NCBI GenBank assembly: GCA_024679065.1
Contig: JAGIQG010000014.1
Coordinates: 41,106,001-41,170,000, forward strand
Source of the DNA: Sphyrna mokarran
Taxonomy: Eukaryota
Direction: 5' to 3'
Length of the DNA: 64,000 nt
A program made the translations under genes and the position numbers. Numbering within the stretch: the first letter of the stretch is position 1; each line of letters starts with the position of its first letter. Below are positions 16,550-62,945 of this stretch, in pieces. The notes below the pieces were generated by a model. That model ran no database searches, had not been told where the DNA came from, and was given only the letters and a program-made list of their open reading frames with translations.

Positions 16550-17900
16550 GGTGATTGAGGAATAGATATGTAGGCAGATTTTGGCAAGCTGTAAAATTAA
16601 CAGGGTTGTTATGGTGGAAGATTTTAATTTTCCCTATGTTGAAAGATATCCACTTACTGCTAGGAATGTAGATAGGGCAGAGTTTGTAAGGAACATCCAG
16701 GAAGACTTCCTGAAACAATATGTGGATAGTCAACTGGGGAAGGGATCATACTGGACCTGGTAGTGAGAATGAGCCTGACCAAGTGATTGATGTTTCAGTA
16801 GGGGAGCAGTTCATGAACAGTAACCACAATTCAGTAAGCTTTAAGGTACTGATGGATAAAGGTGAGTGTAGTCCTCAAGTTAAGGTGCTAAATTGCGGGA
16901 AGGCTAATTACAACAATATTATGCAGGAATTGAAGAATGTAGATTGGGGGCAGATGTTTGAGGGCAAATCAACATTTGGCATGTGGGACGTTTTCAAATG
17001 TAAATTGATAGGGGTTTAGGATCAGCACATGCCTGTGAGGATGAAGAATAAGTATGGCAAGTTTTGGGAACCTTGGATAACGAGAGAAAAAGAAAGCATT
17101 TATCAAGGCTGGCTAGCTGGGAACATCTGAAGGAAGTGTCGAATACAAGGAAGGTAGGAAGAAACATAAGCAAGGAGTAAGAAGGGCTAAAAGGGGTCAT
17201 GAGAAAGCATTGGCCTCAGGATTAAGGAAAATCTCAAGGTTTTTTATTCATACATAAAAAGCAAGAGGGTAGCCAGGGAAAAGGTTAGCCCACTCAAGAA
17301 CAAAGAAGGGAATCTATGCTTGGAGCCAGAGGAAATGGGTGAGATATTAAATGAGTATTTTGCATCAGTATTCACCAAAGAGAAGGACTTGGTGGATGGG
17401 AAAGGATGTGTAAATAGTTTGAGTCATGTTGAGATCAAAAGAGACCAGGTGTTCTTGAGACACATTAAGGTAGACAAATCCCCAGGGTCTGATGGGATAT
17501 ACCACAGAATACTGAGAGAGGCAAGGGAGGAAATTAATGAGCCTTGAAAGAAATCTTTGTATCTTCGTTGGCTACAGGGGAGATTCCAGAGAATTGGAGA
17601 ATAGCCAAAGTTATTCCTTTGTTAAGAAGGGTAGCAAGATTAGTCCAGGTAATTATAGGTTGGTAAGCCTTACATCAGTGGTAGGGAAATTATTGGAGAG
17701 GATTTTTTGAGACGGAATTTATTCCCACTTGGAAATAAATGGGCGTATTAGTGAGAGGCAACATGGTTTTGTGAAGGGGAGGTCATGTCTCATTAACTTG
17801 ATCGAGTTTTTTGAGGAAGTGACAAAGATGATTGAGGCTAGGGCAGTGGATGTTGTCTACATGGACTTCAGTAAGCCTTTGACAAGGTCCCTCATGGGGC
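16550..17900 (+). mobile_element. CR1/HER1 LINE ORF2 (endonuclease end to RT start), frameshifted
   Basis: EDFNFP, QEDFLKQYVD, EILNEYFASVFT, KVDKSPGSDGIY, QHGFVKGRSCLINLIEFFEEVT, DVVYMDFSK. Confidence 0.9.
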
Positions 17901-22204: not shown

Positions 22205-22500
22205 TAATATTCTACAGTGCAGAAGGAGGCCATTTGGCCCATTGAGCCTGCACCGACCACAATCCCATCCAGGCCCTATCCCCATAACTCCATGCATTTA
22301 CCCTAACTAGTCCCCCTGACACTATGGGGCAATTTAGCATGGCAAATCCACCTAGCTCATACATCTTTGGACTATGAGAGGAAATTGAAGCACCCAGAGG
22401 AAGCCCACGCAGAAAAAAGGAGAACGTGCAAACTCCAAACTTACAGTGACCCAAGCCGAGGCATCAAACCTGAGTCCCTGGAGGCATGAGGCAGGATGCT
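22205..22500 (-). mobile_element. V-SINE (HE1-like)
   Basis: V domain and HER1-type tail in reverse orientation. Confidence 0.85.
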
Positions 22501-26150: not shown

Positions 26151-27408
26151 CACAATCACCTGGAATTTCCCCTCTAAGCCAATCACCATTCTGACTTAGA
26201 AATATATTGTTGCTCCTTCACAATTGCTTGGTCAAATTCCTGGAAGCAGTGTAGAAGTCCCTATACATAAAGACTGCAATGGTTCAAGAAGGCAGCTCAT
26301 CTCCACCTTTTCAAAGGTAATGAGGGATGGGCAATGAATGCTGCCTAGCCAGCAAAACCTACATCTCATAAATTAATGAAAGTAAACACATGCAATGTTT
26401 TAGAAAAGGTTCTGGCTCTGAACTGTGCACAGGTATTTGAAAAATCCAGTGACTTGTGACACGTTTTAAAATCCTGTAAAAAAAACTTTCTGGATTTACA
26501 ACTAGCATCATCTCTGCGTTGCTCTAAGATTGATTTATCATCTAAGATAGATGGTAGCTAGACAAATACATAGCACAGTTAACAAAGTAAAACATCCCGA
26601 GGCACTTTACAAGAGTGATTATTAAATAAAAGCCTTATAGCTATGGACAGGGATTTGAATACAGGAGTGAGGTATTGTTACACTTGAAGACAATGTAAGT
26701 TAGCAAGCAGAGAGGTCGTTGGGTTGAACAGCGTTTGACACAAATTAGAATATGGGCAATAGAGTTATTGATGTGCAGAAATTTATATTGATAGAAGATG
26801 GAAGACTGGTCAGAAGAGCATTGGAATAGTAAAATCCTTTAAGGCAACTTAACCTATTTGTGTTGACAAGGTATATTGTATGGGGCACATGGTTGCAATA
26901 AAAATATACATAGTGCTGGCCATTCAATCAATCATGCCAGTTTCATCATTCATAGAAATGTTGTCCAAATCTGTGTGTTTTAACTTCTGGAGTGAATAAA
27001 GACACAAAGTCAGCTTTAAATACTTAATTTTTTTTTATTCTATAGTTACTTAAATAATAGTAACTATTTGCAATACATAAAGCAAATATTCACTAACTGT
27101 TACTTAATATTGATTTCCACTTACAATTAAAACCCGGCCAGGATTTTGTTGTCACAGGGAATTAGTTTTTTGTTCTCTTCCCCTTCCAAATATTGTCTCT
27201 CCTTGTGAGCTTTCAGGTTCTTCCCACTGCCTTTCTGAACAAGCTGTTTGTGTTTGCAGAGTTAAAACTTCAAAAGTTTCCTTGGTAATCAGCTGATGAA
27301 TTGATCAGACCCCCAATTACATTGTTCGATTAGGCCAATCAAATCTAACCAGAATCTCAGACCTTATCTCTCTCGGTCTTCTAAATGCATGTTGTTTACA
27401 TTCCAATG

Positions 27409-28541
27409 ATATGAAGATGCTGGCATTGGACTGGAGTAAGCACAGTATGAAATCTCACAACACCAGGTTAAAGTCCAACAGTTTTATTTGGCAGCATTAG
27501 CTTTCAGAGTCTCAAGCTCCTTCATCAGATGAGTGAAGACTTGGTTCACAAACAGAGCATATAAAGACACAAACTCAATTAACAAGGTAACGGTTGGAAT
27601 GCGAGTCTTTACAGGTAATCAAGCCTCAAAGGTACAGGACAATGTGAGAAGAGAGAAGGCCAAGCACAGGTTAAAAATGAGTGTATTATCTCCAGCCAGG
27701 ACAGTTAGTGAGATTTTGCAAGGCCAGGCAAATCGTGGGGGTTACAGATAGTGTGACATGAAACCAAGATCCTGGTTGAGGCCGTCCTCATGTGTGTGGA
27801 ACTTGGCTATCAATTTCTCCTCCGCGATTCTGCATTGTCGTGAGTCGTGAAGGGTCATAAATATGAATACAATCACCTTACGTGAGAACACCATTCACCA
27901 GGTAGACGGTACACAGTCTTGTAACTCAGTGAATGTTGTCTACCTGATATGTTGCAGGAAAGGATGTTCTGAGGCATGGTACTTTGGGGAGACCATGCAG
28001 AAGCTATGGCAACAAATGAATGAACATGGTTAGCCAATCACCAGGCAGGAGTGTTCCCTTCCAGTCAAGGAACACTTCAGCAGTTACGGGCATTCAGCTT
28101 CTGATCTTCAGGTAAGCTTTCTCCAAGGCAGCCTTCACAACACAAGACAACGCAAAGCACAGAGCAGAAACTGATAGCCAAATTTCGCACACATGAGAAT
28201 GGCCTCAACTGGAGTTTTGGGTTCATGTCACATTATCTGTAATCCCCACAATTTGCCTGGGCTTGCAAAATCTCACTAATTCTTCTAGCTGGAGACAATA
28301 CACATCTCTTTAACTTGTGCTTGGCCCTCTCTCCACTCACATTGTCTGTACTTTTAAGAATTGATTACCTGTAATGACTCGCATTCCAAACATTATCTTG
28401 TAAATTGAGTTTGTGTCTTTATACGCACTGTTTGTGAACACAAGTCCTCAGTCACCTGATGAAGGAGATTGAGACTCCGAAAGCTAGTGCTGCCAAATAA
28501 ACCTGTTGGACTTTAACCTTGTGTTGTGAGACTTCTTACTG
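27409..28541. mobile_element. Older foldback Penelope-like element (inverted pLTRs plus GIY-YIG remnant)
   Basis: The minus arm (27409 to about 27850) carries the tail; the plus arm (about 27880-28541) reads NVVYLICCRKGCSEAWYFGET. TSD tacattccaatg at 27397-27408 and 28542-28553. Confidence 0.9.
28453..28489 (+). ncRNA. Minimal type I hammerhead ribozyme motif in a PLE pLTR
   Basis: cac-CTGATGA-a-ggag(attgaga)ctcc-GAAA-gc-TA-gtg: intact core, stem I cac/gtg, stem II ggag/ctcc. Mirror copy at about 27496-27531 (minus). Confidence 0.75.
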
Positions 28542-29634
28542 TACATTCCAATGCCTTGCTAAGGAACACTGGCTCCCAAATGTCTGTTCACAACTCTTCC
28601 CTGCCAAGGAGAAGCTGTTGAATCAGACACCTTCTGTCATTTGACAAATTTGAGGCCATTGCCAGCATAGCGAAAAAACAACTTTAACCAAAAGAAATGG
28701 TTTGCTTGATTGAAGATCTTTCAGCATATTAAAAGTTAGAACTTCATTCAGTCATGGAAGATAGAAACATAATAAATAAGAGAAGGAGAAGGCCATCTGA
28801 CTCTTCCAGCCTTCTCCACCTTGAAGTTTGGCTGAACTGTACCTCATTTCTGATTATCCACATTTCTTTTCCCAGATTCCTTGATACCAGTGCTTAAATC
28901 ACACCTATCAGTTTCAAAAATTTCAACTGACCCACGGCTTTTTTGGGGGAAGCAGTTCCCAGGTTCCCACTCTCCCTGATGTGGGAAGACATGACTTTGT
29001 TCCGATATTAAATTTATGCCTCTTTGTTCTGGATTTTCCGCCAGAGGAAATAGTTACTCTGTGCTAATTTGTTAATAATTTTCAACATCTCAATTAGATC
29101 ATTCTTCAGTTTGCTAGTCTGAATGAAATCAAAGCCTAGTTTATGCAACCTGTTCTCATAATTTAAAAAAAAATTAATCGCTTGTAGAAATGCAGCAATC
29201 TGTTGAAAATTAATGGTCTGTTCACTCAATTGCTTGACCTTTATCAAATATAATGAACTGGGCTGCTCGGGCAAACAAAATATTAATGACTTGCTCATGA
29301 AAAATGGATAGCAAACTGACTGACATGCCTGAAATTGCCTATTGTACCTTTGCATGAGTTAGTAGACAAGAAATTAAGCATTTGCCTCTGTAAATACAAT
29401 GTAGAGCTCGTGCAAATTGTGCCTCAGCCTCAAAGTAGATAGTCAAATATCTTTTGGATCTATACATTAGGTAGCTAGAAATCTGCAAAGGCTTCTGGAT
29501 CTCCTGCACTATACTTCTTAGAAGCTTGGCTTTCCTGCTGCTCTTCTTTCTCCTTAAATATATATACCATATCATGAAGAATCTCATGATTGAGATATAT
29601 TCCCTGTCGTAGCCCTAGTTATTTATTTTAATGT

Positions 29635-29995: not shown

Positions 29996-30456
29996 GTTTT
30001 TTAGGGAGATTTCCCAAACAAAAAACAGTTTTGAAGGAAGTTTCTACATCAAGTTTCCAAAATAAAACACCTTTGATGAAAAACCAATCCAAAATAAAAC
30101 AGGCTGTATCTAATGGCACAGTAAGAATCAACTGTTCTCTTTTAAGGTTGCAGCACCAATCTTTCTCAGTTGATATTCTAAATTTAAAGTGGCATGTTAG
30201 GCAATTGGAAAATATGAGGTGGAGATGCCAGCATTGGACTGGTGTGGGCACGGTGAGAATTATCACAACTTCAGGTTAAAGCTCAACAAAGTTATTTGGA
30301 ATCATGAACTTTCAAAGTACTGCTCCTTCATCGAGTGAGTGGAGGTAGGTTCACAATCAGGGCATATGCAGCCAAAGATACAATTGCAAGATAATTACAG
30401 ATTGGAATGTGAAGACTGGTTGGAATGCAAGTCTTTACAGTACAAGGACAAACAGT

Positions 30457-31298: not shown

Positions 31299-32389
31299 GT
31301 GGAGAGAGGGATAATCACAGTTTAAAGAAATGTGAATTGTCTTAAGCCTATTAGAAGGATTTTGCAAGTACAGGCAGTATGGTGGCAGTTACAAGTAGCG
31401 TGACATGAATCCAAGATCCCATGAGGCTGTTCTCATTCATACGGAACTTGGCTATCAGTTTCTACGTGGTGATTCTGGATTGTCTTATGTTTTGAAGGCC
31501 ACGTTGGAGGATGTTTACCCGAAAATTAGAGGCTGAATGCTCTTGACTGCTGAAGTATTTCCGAACTGGTAGGGAATACTCCAGCTTAGTAATTGTTGCG
31601 CGGTGTCTGTTCATCCATTATCACAGCATGGTCTTGCAGATGTGACATGCTTCAGAACATCCTTCTCTTCAGCGAATGACGTAAGCACAGTAAGAAGTCT
31701 CACCACACCAGGTTTAAGTCCAACCAGTTTATTTGATAGTAATCCCACAAGCTTTTGAAAATGGTGTTCCTTCGTCAGGTGGTGTGGAAGGTTCAGTCAG
31801 AGAAAGGCATATAAAGACACACACACAGTTTACAGAATACTGATTAATACTCAAATCTTTGCAGCTAATGAAGTAGACAGTGTTGGCCGAGTTACATGAG
31901 TATGTACCATTTACCTGGTGGATGATGCTCCCATATATGATGATGGTATCCAGATTGATGATTTGACATATCTTGCAGAGGTTGCCATGGCAGGGTTATG
32001 TGGTAGGCTGGGTAGTTTGCTGCGAATAATGGTCTGTTTGATGTTGGGCGGTTGTTTGAAGGCAAGTAGTGGGGATGTGGGGATGGCCTTGTTGAGATGT
32101 TTATTGTCATCGATGACATGTTGAAGGCTTTGAAGAAGACGTCATTATTTCTCTGCTCCAGAGAAGTACAGGATGACAAAGGATGCTGTGTCAGTCATAT
32201 CCCGTCTTTGTTTTCTGAGGCAGTCGGTGCAGTTGTTCGCTCTGGCGCATTGGAACTGCCGATTGATGAGTCAAGTGCAATAGTCTATTCTTACGAGGGT
32301 GTCTTTCAGCATGGAGGTTTTTGTTGCATTCCTTCTTGTCTGGGCAGTTCCTGTGTATACAAAGCTTTTGGCTTTGATCTTTATTATGT

Positions 32390-33810
32390 CATTGTCTACA
32401 GGAATAGTGCCAGAAGACTGTACAGTAGGAAATGTCCCCTACTCCCCTTGTTCAAGAAGGAGAGTAGAGATAATCCTGGTAATTATAGACCACTGAGCCT
32501 TACTTCTCTTGTGCACAAAGTTTTGGAAAGTATTATTAGAGATAGAATTTATAGTCATCTAGGAAGGAATAATTTGATTAGAGATAGCATGGTTTTGTGA
32601 AGAGTAGGTCGTGCCTCACAAAGCTTATTGAGTTTTTTGAGAAGGTAACAAAAGAGGTGGATGAGGGTAAAGCAGTTGATATGATTTCAGTAAAGCATTT
32701 GATAAGATTCCCCACAATAGGCTATTGCAGAAAATACAGAGACATGGGATTGAGGGTGATTTAGTAGCTTGGATCAGAAATTGGCTAACTGTAAGAAGAC
32801 AAAGGATGCTGGTTGATGGGAAATGGTCATCCTGGAGTTCAGTTACTAGTGGTATACTGCAAAAATCTGTTTTAGGGCCACTGCTGTTTGTCATTTTTAT
32901 AAATGACCTGGATGATGACGTAGAAGGATGGGTTAGTAAATTTGCAGGTGAACTAAAGTCAGTGGAATTGTGGACAGTGCGGAAAGATGTTGCAGATTAC
33001 AAAGGGACATAGGTAAGCTGCAGAGCTGTGATGAGAGGTGACAAATGGGGTTTAATGCGGTGATTCACTTTGGAAGGAGTAACAGGAATACGGAGTACTG
33101 GGCTAATGGTAAGATTCTTGGTAGTGTGGATGAGCAGAGAGATCTCAGTGTCTATGTGCATATATCCTTGAAAGTTGGCACCCAGGTTGTTAAGAAAGCG
33201 TATGGTGTGTTAGCTTTTATTGGTAACTAGATTGAGTTTCGGAGGTCATATTGCAGCTATACAAAACTCTGGTGCGGCCACACTTGGCGTATTGCCTATA
33301 GTTCTAGTCGCTGCATTATAGGAAGGATGTGGAAGCATTGGAAAGAGTGCAGAGGAGATTTATCAGGATGTTGCCTGGTATGATGTGAAGGTCTAATGAG
33401 GAAAGACTAAGGGACTTGAAGATGTTTTCGTTAAGAGAAAAGGGTTAAGAAGTGACTTAATAGAGGCATACAAGATGATCAGAGGATTAGATAGGGTGGA
33501 CAGGGAGAGCCTTTTTTCTTGGATGGTGATGGCTAGCACGAGAGGACATAGCTTTAAATTGAGGGGCAATAGATATAGGACAGATGTCAGACATAGATTC
33601 TTTACTCAGAGAGTAGTAATATCTTGGAATGGCCTGCCTGCAACAGTAGTGGACTCACCAACATTAAGGGCATTTAAATGGTCATTAGATAAATATGGAT
33701 GATATTGAAATAGTGTAGGTTACGTGGGCTTTAGATTGGTTTTTCACAGGTCAGCGCAACATCAAGGACCGAAGGGCCTGTACTGCGCTGTAATGTTCTA
33801 TGTTCTATAC
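32390..33810 (+). mobile_element. CR1/HER1 LINE 3' part nested in the PLE
   Basis: PLFKKESRDNPGNYRPLSLTS, SVLGPLLFVIFINDLD, FFTQRVVISWNGLP; tail atgttctatgttctat. Confidence 0.92.
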
Positions 33811-37539: not shown

Positions 37540-38090
37540 ATTTCATAGAAACCCTACAGTAAGAAGGAGACCATTTTATTTTCTGATCCAGCAAGTCTGC
37601 ACTGACCACAATCCTACCCCTGCTCCATTACCGTAACACCACATATTTATCCTAGCTAATCCTCCTGACAGTAAGGGGCAATTTAACATGGCCAATCAAC
37701 CTAACTTGCACATCTTTGGACAGTTGGGGGAAACACATGCAGATACAAGGAGAACATGCAAACTCCACACAGTCACCCAAGACCAGAATTGAATCTGGGC
37801 TGCTGAAGTTGTGAGGCAACAGTGCTAATTACTGCGCCACCAGCTGCCATCAATAAAAGCCACGTCCAAAAGAGCATCTTACCCAAGGCAATTCTCCCAA
37901 CCTGTTTCAATAACCTCTTGCATTTACTAGGGTTAATCCACCTAACCTGCACATCTTTGCATTATGACAGGATAGCAGAACACCCTGAGGAAATCCACAC
38001 AGGAAAACGTGCAAACTCTATGCAGTGACCTAAGGTCGGAATTGAACCCGGTCCCTGGCACTTTGAGGTAGCAGTGCTAACGACTACGCT
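37540..38090 (-). mobile_element. Two tandem V-SINE copies (about 37540-37840 and 37920-38090)
   Basis: V domain, B box and head in reverse orientation, twice. Confidence 0.8.
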
Positions 38091-38732
38091 ATTTCCAGTG
38101 TTACAATGTATTTTCAGAAGTAAGCATTTTGCTGTGTTGTTGCCTGAGTTCATTGTGCAAGAGCAGAATGTGTGCTTTAATCAGTTCAATTATTTCACAT
38201 TTGTTTCTGGCTGATACAACATATCAACTGAAATATTACAAACATCTTTAATGACGGAGTTCTTGGCTTAGAAAATAAAGAGAAGAAATGTAATTTTCAG
38301 GGCAATGAAATATGGAACATTAAACAAATCAGTAAATAAAGTCAATCTACCAATTTAGCTTATTTTTTAAATGTTTCTGCGATTTAACCTCACAAGTAGT
38401 CGAAATGAAATTAAATTTATTGATCAAATATTCTTCCCCATAGGTGTCAGTGATAATAACCCTAAAATTGCCAGCCTGTTAGGAGTGTTTTTTTTAATCG
38501 CTGGAGAAGGTTTTTTTTAGAGCAAGAATAGAGAATGCAGGAAAAACACAGCAGGTCTGGCAGCACCTGTAGTAAGAACTCAGTAAGAATTTAGCAACAC
38601 CAATTTTAAATCCAACCGATTTATTTGATAGTAAATTTGCGAGCTTTCGACACTCTGTGTCTTTGTCAGGCAAATGCAGTGTTCTGGTCTGCAATAGCAC
38701 ACATATCAACACAGACAGTCACAGATTGCTGA

Positions 38733-38825
38733 TTAGAGAAACTTGATGTCTGTGTCGATATGTGCAATCCTCTTGGAGATCCTCTCCACTTGGATCCGGC
38801 AGTATGCGGTGTTGATAGTAGTCAT
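38733..38825 (-). pseudogene. Probable N-terminal 30 codons of the PLE ORF, fused to the pLTR
   Basis: atctctacatc-ATG then MTTINTAYCRIQVERISKRIAHIDTDIKFL*; the ATG directly follows the PLE tail sequence and the stop arises at the fusion junction. Confidence 0.7.
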
Positions 38826-38930
38826 GATGTAGAGATGATTGCACATATCGACACAGACATCAAGTTTCTCTAATCAGCAATCTGTGACTGTCTGTGTTGA
38901 TATGTGTGCTATTGCAGACCAGAACACTGC

Positions 38931-38971
38931 ATTTGCCTGACAAAGACACAGAGTGTCGAAAGCTCGCAAAT
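38931..38971 (+). ncRNA. Minimal hammerhead ribozyme motif (G8-to-A variant)
   Basis: atttgc-CTGACAA-a-gacac(aga)gtgtc-GAAA-gc-TC-gcaaat: perfect 6-bp stem I and 5-bp stem II. Mirror copy at 38635-38675 (minus). Confidence 0.75.
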
Positions 38972-39199
38972 TTACTATCAAATAAATCGGTTGGATTTAA
39001 AATTGATGTTGCTAAATTCTTACTGAGTTCTTACTACCCCAGTCCAACGCCGGCATCTCTACATCAGCACCTGTAGGGACAAAAAGCAGATTTAATGTTT
39101 TGAGTTTGTTTGGTTCTTCTTCAGAATTAAGGAGAGGGAGAAATGTGTTTTGTTGAACTGTATCGTGAGAGATTGCAACAAGATGTAACCAGATCGACT

Positions 39200-45435: not shown

Positions 45436-46955
45436 TTAAACTGTCACAAACCGTACTAAATTTGCCTTACACAACTTGTCATTAATAGCTAACTGTTCTA
45501 AAGTAAACAATGCATTTCGAAATGTTCACTAATATTATCTTGAATTATTCATTCTCAGTGTTGTGCACACCTGAAATTGGTATTAGCAACAGTTAATTAT
45601 TCTCCCTCTACTTTGAACAGAATTGTTACATTACAACATTGTTACATTGAATTGCACAACTTCCATTGTTGGATTGAAATGTTGTGCCCAGAATTTTTGC
45701 CTTTTTTCAAAAAATATTTTTACAATACATGTTGAAACTTAATGCAAATTAAATTAACAATGCCATAAGGTGTTTGACAAACTATAATTATATAACAATT
45801 TGAGTTATACATTCTTAAACTCAACATCTTGAGAGTTGTTTGTGAAATTTAGCAACTGGTTGCCAAGCTTTGGAATATTCATCCTTCATCATTTCACCAC
45901 TCTACCTCATTTTCCTCCTTTAAGAAATACCTTAAAATTTATTTCTTTGACTAAGTTGGTCATCTGACCAGTTAGTATCTCCTTTTGTGGCTCAGTTTCA
46001 CATTTTGTTTTATAAAGCTTCCCTGAAGTGCATTAGGATGTCTTGTTACTCTGAAGTTTTTGCTTATGAGCGGCAAATCTAAAATCTATGTGAAAAAGTG
46101 TTTTAATATCCAAACATTAAACATTGGCAAAAAAGTGCAAATCTATCGGGACATTAAAAACTAAGGAATTGTGAGTTCTTCGCTTGTCCTAACCATCTAG
46201 TTTCATGATATAAAGTTAATATTTTAGAGGTAACTTTTAGTTTTATAGAGATTAAATTAATAAAGGCAATGTAACGAAAATTCTGAACTCGAGAAATTGC
46301 CAATCCACCTTCAGTAATAGCAGTTCAAAATTTAATCATTAAGGTTAACTGGGTTGGAAATGAGGAAACATTATCAATAGTTGCCCCATCTCTGAGCTTG
46401 GTAGATTACTTCAACAAGGAATTTAAATCATCATGCAGTTCCCAGAGCAAAGGTATAAAAGCACCTTTGTAAATAAGTAGGTTTCTTGGTGGAACCAGCA
46501 AGTCTGGATAAAGGGGCTATTAACTCCATTAGGAATATAAATTAGTCGTGCGGATCACAGAATCAAAAGAGTGTTTTTAAAGTAAAATGCATTAATTTAC
46601 ATTTCTGTTTGGATCTTCCTCAGTCGGTTGCCCTGTTATGGATATAATCAGTAAGAATTTAGCAACACCAATTATTAATCCAACCGATTTATTTGATAGT
46701 AAAATAGCGAGCTTTCAACACTCCCGTGTCTTCATCAGGCAAGTGCAGTGTTCTGGTCTGCAATAGCACACATCAGCACAGACAGTCAGAGATTGCTGAT
46801 TAGAATGCGAATCCTTACATCTAACCTGCTATTCAAGTGTTAAAGTGGCTAACAATGTGTGTGAAGGGGATCCTGAGCATTGTTAGAGAGTTGTGTATTT
46901 TCTCCAGACAGCACAGTAAGTGAGGTTTTTTGCTAACCCAGGCAAGTTACGGGGG

Positions 46956-48494
46956 TTACAGATAGTGTGTCATGAAGCCAAGATCCCTGTTAAGACCGTC
47001 CTCATGTGTGCGGAGCTTGGCTATCAGTCTCTGTTCAGCGACTCTGCGCTGTCGTGTATCACGAAAGCCCCCTTGAAGAACATTTACCCGCAGGTCGGAG
47101 GCCGAATGCCCATGACTGCTGAAGTGTTCACCCACAGGAAGGGAACTGTTTTGCCTGGTGATTGTTGAGCGATGCTCATTCATCCGCTGTCGTAGTGTTT
47201 GCATGGTCTCCCCAATATACCATGCTTCGGGACATCCTTTCTTGCAACGTATTAGGTAGACAACGTTGGCCGAGTTGCAAGAGTATGTACCGTGCACCTG
47301 GTGAATGGTATCCTCACGTTTGATGATGTCGTCCATGTCTATGATCCGGCATGTCTTGCAGAGGTTGCTGTGGCAGGGTTGTGTGGTATTGTGGTCACTG
47401 TTCTCCTGAAGGTTGGGTAGTTTGCTGCGAACAATGATCTGTTTGAGGTTGTGCGGTTGTCTGAAAGCAAGAAGTGGGGGGGTGGGGATGGCCCTAGCGA
47501 GATGTTCATCGTCATCAATGATATGTTGAAGACTCCGGAGAAGATGTCGTAGCTTCTCCGCTCCGGGGAAGTACTGGACAACAAAGGGTACTCTGTCCAC
47601 CGTGTCCCGTGTTCGTCTTCTGAGGAGATCAGTGCGGTTTATCGTTGTGGCACGTTGGAACTGTCGATCGATGAGTCGAGCGCCATATCCTGTTCTCACG
47701 AGTGCATCCTTCAGTGTCTGGAGGTGTCTGTCACGATCCTCCTCATCTGAGCAAATTCTGTGTATACGGAGGGCTTGTCCATAGGGAATGGCTTCTTTAA
47801 CGTGTCTAGGGTGGAAGCTGGAGAAGTGGAGCATTGTGAGGTTGTCTGTCGGTTTGCGGTACAGTGAGGTGCTGAGGTGACCGTCCTTGATGGAGATGCG
47901 TGTGTCCAAGAATGCAACTGATTCTGGAGAATAGTCCATGGTGAGTCTGATGGTGGGATGGAACTTGTTGATATCATCATACAGTTGTTTCAATGATTGT
48001 TCACCATGAGTCCAAAGGAAAAAGATGTCATCAATGTATCTAGTATATAACCTTGGTTGGAGATCTTGTGTGGTGAAGAAGTCTTGTTCGAACCTGTGCA
48101 TGAAGATGTTGGCATACTGAGGTGCGAATTTGGTCCCCATGGCTGTTCCGTGTGTCTGGATGAAAAGCTGATTGTTGAAGGTGAAGACATTGTGGTCCAA
48201 GATGAAGCGGATGAGTTGTAAAATTGCATCTGGAAACTGGCAGTTGTTGGCATTGAGTACTGAGGCAGTTGCAGCAATACCATCGTCGTGGGGGATGTTG
48301 GTGTAGAGCGCCGAGACATCCATTGTGACAAGGAGTGTCCCTGTTTCCACTGCTCCATGTGTGCTGAGTTTCTGCAGGAAGTCCGTAGTGTCAAGACAAA
48401 AGCTGGGGGTTCTTTGTACGATGGGTTTCAGGATGCCCTCGATATAGCCGGAGAGGTTCTCACACAGGGTCCCGTTGCCCGATACGATGGGACG
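46956..48494 (-). CDS. PLE reverse transcriptase + GIY-YIG endonuclease, 5'-truncated, uninterrupted frame
   Basis: The frame is open from RPIVSG (48494) through MDVSALYTNI, GTAMG, RYIDD, the linker PCHSNLCKTC, NVVYLIRCKKGCPEAWYIGET and RMNEH to EDGLN; the track ORF starts at an internal GTG (48350). Confidence 0.93.
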   Translation of the reverse strand, partial: RPIVSGNGTLCENLSGYIEGILKPIVQRTPSFCLDTTDFLQKLSTHGAVETGTLLVTMDVSALYTNIPHDDGIAATASVLNANNCQFPDAILQLIRFILDHNVFTFNNQLFIQTHGTAMGTKFAPQYANIFMHRFEQDFFTTQDLQPRLYTRYIDDIFFLWTHGEQSLKQLYDDINKFHPTIRLTMDYSPESVAFLDTRISIKDGHLSTSLYRKPTDNLTMLHFSSFHPRHVKEAIPYGQALRIHRICSDEEDRDRHLQTLKDALVRTGYGARLIDRQFQRATTINRTDLLRRRTRDTVDRVPFVVQYFPGAEKLRHLLRSLQHIIDDDEHLARAIPTPPLLAFRQPHNLKQIIVRSKLPNLQENSDHNTTQPCHSNLCKTCRIIDMDDIIKREDTIHQVHGTYSCNSANVVYLIRCKKGCPEAWYIGETMQTLRQRMNEHRSTITRQNSSLPVGEHFSSHGHSASDLRVNVLQGGFRDTRQRRVAEQRLIAKLRTHEDGLNRDLGFMTHYL

Positions 48495-48940
48495 TATCTC
48501 TGCAAGATGGACGATCGCTCAACAATCACCAGGCAAAACAGTTCCCTTCCTGTGGGGAACACTTCAGCAGTCATGGGCATTCGGCCTCCGACCTGCGGGT
48601 AAATGTTCTTCAAGGGGGCTTTCGTGATACACGACAGCGCAGAGTCGCTGAACAGAGACTGATAGCCAAGCCCGCACACATGAGGACGGTCTTAACAGGG
48701 ATCTTGGCTTCATGACACACTATCTGTAACCCCCGTAACTTGCCTGGGTTAGCAAAAAACCTCACTTACTGTGCTGTCTGGAGAAAATACACAACTCTCT
48801 AACAATGCTCAGGATCCCCTTCACACACATTGTTAGCCACTTTAACACTTGAATAGCAGGTTAGATGTAAGGATTCGCATTCTAATCAGCAATCTCTGAC
48901 TGTCTGTGCTGATGTGTGCTATTGCAGACCAGAACACTGC

Positions 48941-48982
48941 ACTTGCCTGATGAAGACACGGGAGTGTTGAAAGCTTGCTATT
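48941..48982 (+). ncRNA. Minimal hammerhead ribozyme motif in the pLTR
   Basis: acttgc-CTGATGA-a-gacac(ggga)gtgtt-GAAA-gc-TT-gcta; the mirror copy at about 46703-46744 (minus) has GAAA-gc-TC. Stem I is imperfect. Confidence 0.7.
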
Positions 48983-49112
48983 TTACTATCAAATAAATCG
49001 GTTGGATTAATAATTGGTGTTGCTAAATTCTTACTGAGTTCTTACCACTCCAATCCAACGCCGGCATCTTTACATCATGGATATAATCTGCAGGGAACAA
49101 CTCTTTTTCATG

Positions 49113-49320
49113 TGATGTGGAGATGCCGGCATTGGACTCAGGTGGGCACAGTAAGGAGTCCCTCAGCACCAGGTTAAAGTCCAATAGGTTTATTTGGAAT
49201 CATGAGCTTTTGGAGCACTGCTCCTTCATCAGATGAGTCCTACCTCTCCACTCACCTGGTACTCCGAAAACTCGTGATTCCAAGTAAACCTGTTGGACTT
49301 CAACCTAGTGTTGTGAATCT
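49113..49320. mobile_element. Very short foldback PLE pLTR remnant
   Basis: A minus arm with tail (tgatgtggagatgccggcattggact...) and a shorter plus arm (actcacctg...aaacctgttggacttcaacctagtgttgtga); both hammerhead cores are damaged. Confidence 0.75.
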
Positions 49321-50663
49321 TTTTTTGTGTGGTTTATCTGTGCAATTTTGGTCACAAAAACAAACTATTCAGCTTGGGAACAGGCTGAGAGTTGAGGATG
49401 CAAAAAAGGCATGCACCTTTAAACAGGTGCACTAGTTTATCACACAAAATGTGGATGGGGATATGTGCTCAATTTTGAGACAATCCTTGAGGGGAAAAGA
49501 TGCCAGAAGAGTTGGCTGGCTGAATAATGAAATCTACAGTAATGCTTATAATAAAAAGCAGTCCAGTTTGGAGAGGTCAGAATGTTTTGGAAGTTTTATG
49601 GAGAAACTGTTTAGTTTAGTTTGGTGTGATTGAAGTGGAGTGAACAGCTCTGCAAGGTCCAAAATGGCAGCTCGAATGACAAGCCTCAAACTGCCCACTC
49701 CACATGCTTTTGGCGTATGCATGGCATGACTTCACACATGCCTTTTCAGTCAGGGCATGCTGCACGGTCTGCACTGGAAGTGCCCACCAATGTTACTTGA
49801 AGTTTTGGTCTTCCATAATACTAATGCTAGTGATGCTACAGATTCAAATCTTAGGGCCACCATGAGTTAAAATGCAGCCGCATCTCAGATGTAACTACAT
49901 TCTTGTCTAAATTGTCTTGCAGTTTGATAGGAGTTTGTGTGGATGACTGTTGTGATATGTGACAGGAATTTGTGCTTTTAATTGAAAATGTGAATTCTTA
50001 GTAAGTGTAACAATTCAATTATTCGAATGGACCTGATAATTTTTCACATCGCATCTGCTGCTCATAGCTGCTTCACTTGTATTATAGAATTGACATGCAC
50101 AAGTTATAGCCCAGTTTTATATAAAATTTCTTCTTATTCAAACATTTATTGAAAATTTACAAAGATAACAGGGACACATATGGTGGAAATGATTAAATTG
50201 GCGAGACGCTATTGGACATGATGGAAAAATAATGTCAGAATACACATAAAGATCTATCATTGAATGGCAAAGGATCCATTTTTGAGATATTGAAATGATA
50301 GGACTATGACCAACCTTACTCCTCAATTGGAGCCATGAGGAGATACTAATCTTGTCAAATAGTTTAAAATATCAAAAAGCAGTGGAATGATTCAAATTAT
50401 TTTGCACTTGGACTGAAATTACTCTGGTAAGTTATCTGATCAGGCACATCTCTTATTCATATTTCAGCATATTGGATGTTTCACAATCCAGTTCAGGAAA
50501 TAATTAGAAACAACATTTTTTAAAAATCAGAAAAATACACATTGGTTGATGAATATTTGAAAGAACATTTGGGCACATGAGCAGCACAGGCTTGGAAGGC
50601 CAAAGGCCTGTTCCTGTGCTGTATTGTTCTTTGTAACAGTCAAGCTCACGTTTGGGTATCATT

Positions 50664-54230: not shown

Positions 54231-56143
54231 AACAAGAACAAAGAACAAAGAACAAAACAGCACGGGAAACAGGCCCTTCGGCCCAACGAGCCCGTGCCGC
54301 CATCCTGATGTTTCCACCTCTATCTGTGATCCCTGTCTATGTTTATAGATCTATGGATTGAAAACCAAATTTGAGACAATTTAGGGAGAATTTGTTTTCC
54401 CAATTAGCCTAAGAGCACATCTTTGGGATGTGGGAGGAAACTGGAGCACCCAGAGAAAACCTACGCAAGCACGGGGAGAATGCGTAAACTCCCACAGACA
54501 GAGGCCCAAATCCATGTATCTGCACAGCATAGCGATAGTCACTGAGCTGTCGTGTTGCCCATCAAATGGTCCAGGTCAAGTGTACACTACTGATGTGAAG
54601 CACTAGGATACTCTCGAACAAAAAAATCCAAGAGCAGCCCTCTCACAATCCATCGTGTATATGCCCCTTGTTAGACAACAAGGTGGACCAGAACACCTGT
54701 AGGATAAAAACAAGTACATCAATATCATCGTCTATTTACACACTTCCCAGGGACTCCCAAGGCTCATGATCCCTATTTTAAATCAGTTTTCTATACCCCT
54801 CCATTCCCATTCTGTTCATGTGCCCATCTAAGTATTTCTTAAATAACTCCAGAGTACCTGCCTCCACCACTTTACTTGGCAGCGCATTCCATACCTCCAC
54901 CACCCTCTGTGTGAAAAAACTCCCTCTAGCATCCAAATTATACCTTACCCCCCTCACCCTAAGCCCATGACCCCTTGTGCTATTCGAGTCCATCCTAGGA
55001 AAAAGCTTAACCCTGTTTACTTTATCTATTCCCCTCATAATCTTGTACACCTCTATTAGATCTCCTCTAAGTCTATGTCTTTCTAAGGAAAACAGTCCTA
55101 ATTTGCCTAACCTCTCCTTGTAACTCAGACCTTCCATACTGGGCAGCATCCTGGTAAACCTCCTCTGCACTCTCTCCAGAATCTCCACGTCCTTCCGGTC
55201 GTAAGGCGACCAGAACTGGACGCAATATTCCAAATGAAGTCTAACCAACGTTTTATACAACTGCAACGTTAAAGGCCAGCTCTTGTACTCTACATCCCTT
55301 CCTATAAAAGCTAGCATACCATATGCTTTCTTCACAACCTTCTCCACTTGCTCTGCCACCTTCAGAGACTTGTTCACCTGCACCCCCAGGTCTCTCTGCA
55401 TTTCTATACTCTTAACAGGTCTACCCTTTATCATATACTCTGCCTATATCCTTTCTCCTGAAATGCATCATCTCACACTTATCAGGATTGAATTCTATCT
55501 GCCATCTATCTGCCCAAGCTACCTGCTTATCTATGTCCTGCTGCATCGCCTGACAATGCTCCTCACTATCTGCAAGTCCAGCAATCTTTGTATCGTCTGC
55601 AAACTTGCTGATCACTCCACTTACTCCCTCTTCCAAGTCATTTATATACATTACAAATAGAAGAAGTCCCAGTACCGCGCCCTGCGGCACACCACTAGTG
55701 ACCGACCTCCAGCTAGAAAAACACCCTTCCACTACAACTTCCACTATTACTCTCTGTCTCCTATTACTAAGCCAGTTACTTATCCATCTAACTACTTGTC
55801 CTTGTATCCCATGAGCCTTAACCTTCTCAACTAACCTCCCATGTGGGACTTTGTCAAAAACCTTACTGAAATCCATACAGACGACATCAACGGCTCGCCC
55901 TTCGTCCACCGTTTTCGTCAGCTGCTCAAAAAATTCTACCAGATTTGTAAGGCACAATCTCCCCTTAACAAATCCATGCTGCGTATCCCTAATCAGATCG
56001 CAACGCTCTAAATGCCTATACATCCTATCTCTAAAAATCCCCTCCAACAGCTTCCCTACCACTGACGTCAAACTCACCAGCCTATAATTCCCAGGGTTAT
56101 CCCTACTACCCTTTTTAAACAATGGTACAACATTAGCTGTTCT
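54231..56143 (-). mobile_element. Young 5'-truncated CR1/HER1 LINE with long SINE-containing 3' UTR
   Basis: RT and C-terminus lie in two ORFs (55421-56122 and 54778-55434) separated by one frameshift: GNYRLVSLTS, QHGFVKG, DFSKVFDKVPH, GVPQGAVLG, KFADD; (ttctttg)n tail. Confidence 0.95.
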
Positions 56144-56289
56144 AATAATCCACTGAATTGTTTCACTTTTGGGAAAAAGATAACCATTGTTCTGATGCTG
56201 CCTTTAAAAACCTTCAGTCAGCTGATGGTCAGTTTCAAAGCAGCAGGAACAGAGCCAAGGGCAACACACTAAATTAGCAATTCTTATGA

Positions 56290-57249: not shown

Positions 57250-58330
57250 CAGTGTCCCACATGGTCTGCCACATCCTTGTTCAGTCCTAGGAATTGACAT
57301 CAATGTTTCATTTCCTTCGTTTGGCTATTCAGTACATCCTTGAAGCACTTGTAACTTCCTCAGAGGCATCTGCCCGCACTGCACTTGGAGAAAAAGACCT
57401 GTTTTGGGAACTTGGCATCTGACATCCAAATTGTATGATCACCCCTACAAAGCGATGGAGGCTGATTATAACCTTGATGTTTGTGAGAGGGTGCTGACAT
57501 TAGTGTGTCTTTGAAATCATATCATAGAAACCCTACTGTACAAAAAGAGACCATTTGGCCCATCAAGTCTGCCCCGACCACAATCCCACCCAGATCCTAC
57601 CTTCATGTCCCAATGTATTTACCCATTAATCGCTCTAACTTACGCATCTTAGGACAATTAAAGGCAATTTTAGCATGGCCAATCTATCTAACCCACACAT
57701 CTTTGGACTGTGGAGGAAACCAGGGCACCCAGAGGAAACCCACACAGACACGAGGAGAATGAGTAAACTCCACACAGACAATGAACAAAGCCAGGAATCA
57801 AACCCAGGTTGCTGGAGCTGTGCTAACCACTGTGCTACCGTGCCGTCCTCCCAGTTAGATATTCTGCAGGCAGCATTGATGGTATGACTCCAATGTTTTG
57901 AGGTGCCTCCTGGACATTGTCCATGTTTCAGCACCACATTTTAAGGAAGGGATTACCACCTCATGGGAAACCGTGAGCTTGGTTTTGGTTTTGATGTTGT
58001 CATTTTCAGACACTCACTTCCTGAGGTGGCCAAAGGCTGCATTAACAGATTTTAGGCAATACTCCATTTCTACGTCAATGTCAGCCTTCCGTATAAGGTA
58101 GCTTCTACGGCACTGGAAATGTGTCACAATTTCCAGGCACTCATCATGAATCCTAATCAAAGGAGTTAGATGTGTGCATTTGGAGCTTGCTGATGGAGGA
58201 CTGGTTTTCTCAATGTTGAGTATAAGTCCCATCTTCTCCTGTGCCTGAGTGTGGAGATCTGTTTCCTGCAGCACAACAGCACACTTCTGAGGTTTTTTCA
58301 CCTTAATTATTAGTTGCGACACAAGGAGCA
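57250..58330 (-). mobile_element. RTE-clade LINE remnant interrupted by a SINE
   Basis: MGLILNIEKT...IHDECLEIVTHF...RKADIDVEMEYCLKSVNAAFGHLRK...NIKTKTKL, the RTE RT C-terminal pattern. Confidence 0.7.
57517..57848 (-). mobile_element. V-SINE (HE1-like)
   Basis: Reverse head acggcacggtagcacagtggttagcac, V domain and tail. Confidence 0.88.
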
Positions 58331-58890: not shown

Positions 58891-59089
58891 GCTGTGTAGT
58901 AGTGGCGCCTGTTCGGGTACACTGAGGAAGAATTTAGCATAGTCAATGCATCTAACTAGCACGTCTTTTGGACTGTGGGAGGAAACCAGAACATCCGAAG
59001 GAAACCCATGCAGACATGGGGAGAACATGCAGACTCCGCACAATCAGTGAACAAAACTGGGAATTGAACCCAAGCCACTGTGCTGAGAG

Positions 59090-62644: not shown

Positions 62645-62945
62645 CATAGAATCACAGAAACCCTGCATTACAGAAGGAAACCCATTCGGCCCATTGCGTC
62701 TGCACTAACAACAATCCCACCCCAGGCCCTATCCCCACAACCTCACACATTTACCCCGTTAACCAAAACATCCTGGGACACAAAGGGCAATTTAGCATGG
62801 CCAATCAATCTAACATGCATATCTTTGGAGGAAACCGGGGCACCAGGAAGAAATCCACGCAGACAAGGGAAGAAATGTGGACTTCACACAAACAGTGACC
62901 CAAACCAGGAACTGAACCCAAGTCCCTGGAGTTGTGAGGCCATGG
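62645..62945 (-). mobile_element. V-SINE (HE1-like)
   Basis: catagaatcacagaaaccc tail, V domain and B box in reverse orientation. Confidence 0.85.

Follow-up and report, generated by a model that had tools for sequence, protein, structure and literature searches.

In vertebrates, only Neptune and Poseidon have been reported among the PLEs, and trees and co-occurrence have already been used to argue that animal retrozymes originated from PLE pLTRs, retrozymes being present in the single chondrichthyan that was sampled (bioRxiv 10.64898/2026.07.22.740005). PLE hammerheads represent a minimal form of type I, in which helix III is palindromic and an additional A occurs (PMC4209133), and a foldback layout with an inverted arm has been described as typical of PLE insertions (PMC3846280; PMC8557442; PMC8969392). 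The one-sided tail of such insertions is explained by the use of two RT start sites on both target strands: in vitro, the protein of the Poseidon element PAc of Anolis cleaves both strands and extends them, beginning at two sites that delimit the tail, a process that depends on RNA downstream of the start site but not on the hammerhead (PMC11167929). Mobilisation in trans based on the pLTR has also been put forward, and non-coding, pLTR-bearing derivatives presumed to move in this way include an internally deleted Pen2 derivative of Adineta with inverted pLTRs and TSD (PMC3846280) and MRC1 and other non-autonomous Chlamys elements of Chlamydomonas (PMC8557442), the reported similarity of these derivatives to the autonomous family being at the 3' end. 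The non-LTR retrozymes of metazoans are small, self-pairing units of low GC with a type I motif, show homology to pLTRs and are likely to use the PLE machinery (PMC7229834; bioRxiv 10.64898/2026.07.22.740005).

The insertion described here lies at 38561-39076 of the window, by which we mean the whole 64,000-nt stretch of Sphyrna mokarran DNA that was analysed. It behaves as PLE derivatives of the known non-autonomous kind do, and is referred to as the mini-PLE in the following. Current criteria do not make it a retrozyme, so that this reading went too far; the part worth following is a predicted helix between ORF and pLTR. The features of the locus and of a related insertion downstream are:

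38561..38572, plus strand: left TSD, 12 bp; its last 4 nt also match the template at the upstream RT start site
38573..38837, minus strand: inverted arm, 265 nt, with tail end, ORF start, junction and tail-less pLTR
38635..38677, minus strand: minimal type I hammerhead motif, core CUGACAA, position 8 being A at 38664
38736..38825, minus strand: codons 1-30 of a PLE ORF of Neptune type, by protein homology
38826..38837, minus strand: final 12 nt of the tail of an upstream unit, abutting the ATG (partial tandem); the order tail, then Met is also found in P0124
38833..38837, no strand: apex joining both arms, with imperfect microhomology AGATG versus AGAGG
38837..39064, plus strand: direct arm, 228 nt, with codons ~20-30, junction, pLTR and tail
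38841..38859, plus strand: ORF strand of the predicted ORF-pLTR helix (AHIDTD codons); minus-arm copy at 38765-38747
38868..38870, plus strand: ORF/pLTR junction with 1-2 nt overlap; minus-arm copy at 38738-38736
38889..38909, plus strand: pLTR strand of the predicted ORF-pLTR helix; minus-arm copy at 38717-38697
38929..38971, plus strand: minimal type I hammerhead motif, position 8 being A at 38942, predicted cut after 38965
39038..39064, plus strand: PLE tail, present in the plus arm only, stopping just short of the ATG position
39065..39076, plus strand: right TSD; its first 2 nt match the template at the tail end/ATG
46638..49088, no strand: sister-subfamily Neptune insertion, a foldback with 12-bp TSD and a 520-codon RT/GIY-YIG fragment on the minus strand

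A perfect 12-bp TSD, CAGCACCTGTAG, flanks the mini-PLE (38561-38572 and 39065-39076), and its arms (38569-38769 and 38837-39037) match over 201 bp with a single mismatch (38600/39006), four of these base pairs (38569-38572) overlapping the left TSD. The insertion is young. Its minus arm starts with 12 nt of tail end (38837-38826), followed by the ATG at 38825, 30 codons (MTTINTAYCRIQVERISKRIAHIDTDIKFL) and a TAA stop (38735-38733) that was created by the junction, and is pLTR from 38737 onward. As deduced from arm symmetry, the unit measures 285 nt from the ATG to the tail end, with a GC content of 41%, and consists of ORF nt 1-88/89 fused to the element's terminal ~197 nt, with the tail piece preceding; no RT or EN sequence whatever is found in it. 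TSD, arms and a unit length of about 290 nt had all been read in this way in the first-pass annotation. The pLTR part (38869-39066) is 90% identical to 48881-49077 of the neighbouring insertion, and the tail of 27-28 nt is slightly below the quoted PLE range of 30-40 nt.

The foldback itself had been taken for a special trait of the locus, a view that does not hold, as the same layout recurs in two other insertions of the window and is typical of PLEs (PMC3846280; PMC8557442). The PLE insertions examined in the window were the mini-PLE, the neighbour (46638-49088), PLE2 (27397-28553) and the pLTR pieces c30 (around 30212-30451), c31 (around 31684-31861) and c49 (around 49113-49346), and perfect 12-bp TSDs were found in three of these six: the mini-PLE, the neighbour and PLE2, all of which combine a tail-less inverted arm with a direct arm that carries the tail. 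At the older copies c49 and c30, a search for TSDs gave nothing convincing. The neighbour is likewise a young foldback with 526-bp arms that differ at three places (two 1-nt gaps and one substitution at hammerhead position 17), a TSD starting with ATGG, an uninterrupted 520-codon RT/EN fragment and an apex with ~17 nt of filler, 10 nt of which match its own ORF at 47363 (a borderline match). PLE2, from a PLE lineage that is more distant, is a foldback of greater age, having intact hammerhead cores with a cut triplet that ends in A, and c49 is a small decayed pLTR foldback of another lineage beside the neighbour, in which the GAAA box of the hammerhead is mutated. The three perfect TSDs (38561-38572, 46638-46649 and 27397-27408) agree with the template at the tail end/ATG in their first 2-4 nt and with the upstream RT start site in their last 1-4 nt, hinting at priming by short homology, unlike the non-homologous priming reported for PAc (PMC11167929).

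By protein homology, the 30 codons encode the beginning of a Penelope ORF of Neptune type, an assignment that stands as first proposed. Among 120 listed relatives of the neighbour's ORF, the two best matches of the peptide lay at the very N-terminal ends of P0005 and P0007, both full-length ORFs, residues 4-30 aligning with residues 4-30 of P0005 (E 6.8e-5). A peptide search of 1.84 billion representative proteins returned four matches, the top one of which, P0121, was discarded because it is a tandem repeat of 53 aa in which no single stretch was significant alone; the other three, P0122-P0124, are close relatives with 67-77% identity to the peptide, which have IAHIDTDIKFL in common and then continue into the ORF, and a stop after KFL was seen in none of these three N-termini. 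P0123 also contains a piece of the RT thumb that shares 77% identity with the ORF of the neighbour, and P0124 carries a translated tail immediately ahead of the Met, like the mini-PLE. Neither the 46-aa frame between stops nor the 51-aa frame spanning the junction gave a match in word-based searches of proteins, a weak result as the former missed P0122-P0124 too. We also considered the 30 codons as an inverted copy of the pLTR, to which 19 nt are complementary, but this is ruled out by the protein homology. In the predicted protein P0123, the N-terminus is followed at once by a short piece from the middle of the ORF and by the RT thumb, which suggests either that internal deletions are common in the lineage or that a gene model was joined there.

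The neighbour's ORF, whose best named relatives are shark proteins (83-88% identity), contains RVT_1 and, at its C-terminus, GIY-YIG, the latter scoring 22 bits, just below the cut-off of 22.6, and its linker CHSNLCKTC is CX4CX2C, fitting the CX2-5CxxC type that is common to Neptune and Nematis (PMC8557442). Linker motif and vertebrate host thus point to the Neptune clade, as had been suspected, the assignment being one from motif and host. With EN+ PLEs of this clade the mini-PLE shares the ORF N-terminus, a pLTR with a minimal type I hammerhead, the inverted 5' copy, the one-sided tail of ~28 nt and the TSD, but it lacks RT and endonuclease, its ORF ends after codon 30 and the G8 of its hammerhead is lost. 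It resembles the Adineta derivative (PMC3846280) and those of Chlamydomonas (PMC8557442) in being non-coding and pLTR-bearing and in its presumed mobilisation in trans, and the former also in its inverted pLTRs with TSD; unlike them as described, it retains the 5' end of the ORF as well, which is predicted to pair with the pLTR, and it is known from a single locus. PAc belongs to another clade, yet the two RT start sites bounding the tail and the priming of both strands are alike; in PAc, hammerhead and tail lie inside the ORF start, whereas the tail of the mini-PLE ends just before the ATG (PMC11167929).

A 21-mer spanning the junction between ORF and pLTR occurs twice in the 64-kb window, once per arm (shuffle mean 0.01), and the identity of the junction in both arms is as originally noted. 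The first-pass annotation had further proposed that RT and EN were lost at a TTCT-type microhomology. The unit is indeed devoid of both, but a clean TTCT join predicts a product 2 nt shorter than the one observed and was rejected. The residue after Leu30 is Q in two of P0122-P0124 and L in the third, so that ORF and pLTR can overlap by 1-2 nt; such an overlap fits the sequence of the junction, which may also involve slippage or a differing parent sequence. Splicing was discarded as a source of the junction, the acceptor side being checked in the neighbour, where no AG is found directly 5' of the pLTR breakpoint. The neighbour had been regarded as a close relative 8 kb away; it starts at a distance of 7.6 kb, and is a member of a sister subfamily rather than the parent, given ~20 differences in 197 nt. 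No full-length PLE and no second ORF start were found in the window.

Next to the junction, 38841-38859 is complementary to 38889-38909, and the two are predicted to fold into a hairpin whose loop contains the junction (z = -4.24; none of 200 shuffles as good). When the ORF piece was paired with the whole pLTR, equal pairing was reached by 5 of 500 shuffles of this piece for the pLTR of the mini-PLE and in 2 of 500 for that of the neighbour, while the longest unbroken stem was reached by 1 and by 161 of 500 shuffles, respectively. With 45-nt segments of the pLTRs, the ORF window starting at +50 to +54 was the best partner in five of six (mini-PLE, neighbour, both arms of PLE2, and c31, for which 0, 1, 1, 1 and 0 of 18 control blocks paired equally well), and pairing failed for the segment of c30, where 8 of 18 control blocks were as good. 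The control blocks were taken from the neighbour's ORF and scanned at step 2 versus step 1 for the test, slightly favouring the latter; the pLTRs of other lineages, whose own ORF starts are absent from the window, were paired with the ORF of the mini-PLE, and c49 was left out. Since these other pLTRs are only 64-68% identical to that of the mini-PLE, it seems that the complementarity has been conserved and is not a product of the deletion.

The predicted helix involves ORF codons ~21-28, with the breakpoints lying ~10 and ~20 nt beyond its strands. In a full-length RNA, pairing of the ORF start with the 5' pLTR would close a domain of 285 nt, while pairing with the 3' pLTR would span the entire ORF. 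As the breakpoints are situated just beyond the helix in both cases, the junction need not reflect a deletion of RT and EN, a backward jump inside the 5' domain being just as possible. We found no earlier description of such a helix in the literature covered (subscription journals and Repbase/Dfam entries were outside its scope).

Hammerheads were located by pattern, which gave eight matches in the window, six in PLE pLTRs and two chance-like, and an Rfam scan of the whole window with E up to 1 returned no hammerhead model, its sole match being mir-297 (chance). The motif of the mini-PLE has a helix I of 6 bp, a helix II of 5 bp, a palindromic AGCU helix III and an extra A after position 9. 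The motif recognised earlier is thus present, but that position 8 of its core is an A had been overlooked: both arms read CUGACAA, with A replacing G8 and C3 unchanged. G8 is kept in all five other aligned pLTR lineages, and the core of the neighbour is intact. Positions 7-8 are CG in c31, TG in the four other lineages and CA in the mini-PLE, a pattern that suggests CpG decay of G8 in a genomic source. The exchanges G8C and C3G abolish cleavage by a PLE hammerhead, and such mutants insert normally in vitro (PMC11167929), and the natural A8 variant of hammerheads is paired with U3 (PMC4209133). By analogy with these cases and from general hammerhead biochemistry, a hammerhead combining C3 with A8 is probably inactive.

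With modest confidence, we favour an origin of the insertion from a mini-Neptune that is non-autonomous and was mobilised in trans, the junction being present in the template beforehand. A genomic source copy would have carried both the junction and the CpG-type loss of G8 and would have been transcribed as a linear RNA longer than the unit, to which the RT-GIY-YIG protein of an autonomous sister element would bind in trans. Both strands of the target would then prime reverse transcription, at the two start sites known from PLEs, one at the tail end and one ~28 nt upstream, the two cDNAs becoming joined at the apex microhomology, and no ribozyme cleavage would be required. The junction itself may have arisen when the ORF start paired with the pLTR segment, holding the breakpoints together for the RT to jump across, and the retained ORF piece might best be viewed as RNA structure and not as a peptide gene. 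The arms of the mini-PLE each end at a different one of the two start sites, which, together with the PAc data, suggests that they are independent cDNAs; in that case the RNA template already had the junction. Against this reading stand the single locus seen in 64 kb, the continuation of all three related N-termini past KFL, the two word-based searches without a match (weak negatives), the failed pairing of c30 and, for the neighbour, a longest unbroken stem no better than in shuffles. This copy has no tail that is followed by an ORF start, and given the requirement for downstream RNA in PAc it is probably not itself a competent source.

A plausible though less probable course is that the template jump, one-off or recurrent, took place during this very insertion, with no mini source and with the present copy as a dead end. 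The RT would start at the internal site on a full-length RNA, reach the start of the pLTR, possibly near the 5' end of the RNA, hop to ORF position +88 as held by the helix and run through the ATG into the tail, whereupon the cDNA would snap back and copy itself, hence the presence of the junction twice. The helix would bring the breakpoints together in this case too, and self-priming has been proposed for PLEs (PMC3846280); the apex microhomology equally permits snap-back copying of one cDNA, since the apex can pair with the arm at the imperfect AGATG/AGAGG, but the predicted duplex amounts to merely -4.1 kcal/mol. The 5' end of the unrelated solo pLTR c31 lies ~13 nt upstream of the same point, and the ~17-nt filler at the neighbour's apex indicates that irregular jumps occur in the lineage. 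However, the tail would have to derive from a second cDNA, so that two primings and a snap-back are needed where two independent cDNAs from a junction-bearing template are simpler, and a template with a damaged hammerhead is less expected of an actively spreading autonomous master.

It is quite improbable that the mini-PLE is a true non-LTR retrozyme, in which tandem 285-nt units would be cut by dimeric hammerheads and circularised and the circle reverse transcribed by a PLE protein. Its length of 285 nt, its GC of 41% and the above-chance self-pairing of its minus arm (z = -4.1, 100 shuffles) lie within what is described for retrozymes (~150-450 nt, GC below 45-50%, high self-pairing; PMC7229834), it combines pLTR homology with the absence of RT coding capacity, and its minus arm enters a second round of the tail, as from a circle; moreover, the predicted cut site and helix I are intact, so that an intact partner could in principle cleave it in trans. 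But a complete type I core is present in neither arm (A8 with C3), and breakage of the 3-8 pair abolishes cleavage by a PLE hammerhead (PMC11167929), the natural A8 variant having U3 and not C3 (PMC4209133). An array of at least two head-to-tail hammerhead units exists neither at the locus nor elsewhere in the window, just 12 nt of a second unit being found, and the junction is not located at the ribozyme cut site. The motif is of the minimal PLE type, versus the canonical type I of coral and axolotl retrozymes (PMC7229834), and the mini-PLE further differs from metazoan retrozymes in its recognisable ORF start and in being known from DNA alone. The retrozyme-like status claimed in the first-pass annotation is not supported by way of an active hammerhead, with G8 lost in both arms and no tandem.

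Inverted repeats can be misassembled. Assembly problems have been noted (PMC8557442), but an assembly artefact or a DNA rearrangement after insertion is hardly credible here, since the TSD is perfect, the tail is one-sided and the arms end where the start sites predict, all of which is shared with two other insertions, and a post-insertion deletion would need identical hits in both arms.

The locus bears on how a unit-length repeat first comes about and on the RNA that the PLE protein requires in cis. If the helix is real and the junction recurs, it names a concrete mechanism and offers a 285-nt candidate minimal template for use in the in vitro system that has been published. A unique junction would make this one more broken PLE copy, with the helix alone being of interest. 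It is tempting to extend the favoured trans-mobilisation reading to a tentative and rather doubtful proposal, namely that in Neptune RNAs of the shark type a conserved and hitherto undescribed helix between the pLTR and codons ~21-28 closes a domain of ~285 nt containing hammerhead, tail and start codon, and that RT jumps at its foot excise this domain, spawning multi-copy mini-elements independent of the ribozyme, which would represent a missing step from PLE to retrozyme as well as a natural minimal PLE template.

Further remnants of mobile elements are found in the window. A decayed PLE ORF with an internal deletion occupies 31350-32400, and c31 (31684-31861), a tail-less solo pLTR with a 14-bp duplication containing two mismatches, is inserted in its endonuclease region in the same orientation, its 5' end being ~13 nt upstream of the point that corresponds to the junction of the mini-PLE. 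A dispersed SINE-like repeat family was identified at 22245-22471, 37579-38014, 57551-57806, 58923-59072 and 62682-62904, along with several decayed LINE RT fragments (e.g., at 54778-56203 and 17203-17547); these may be CR1/L2-like.
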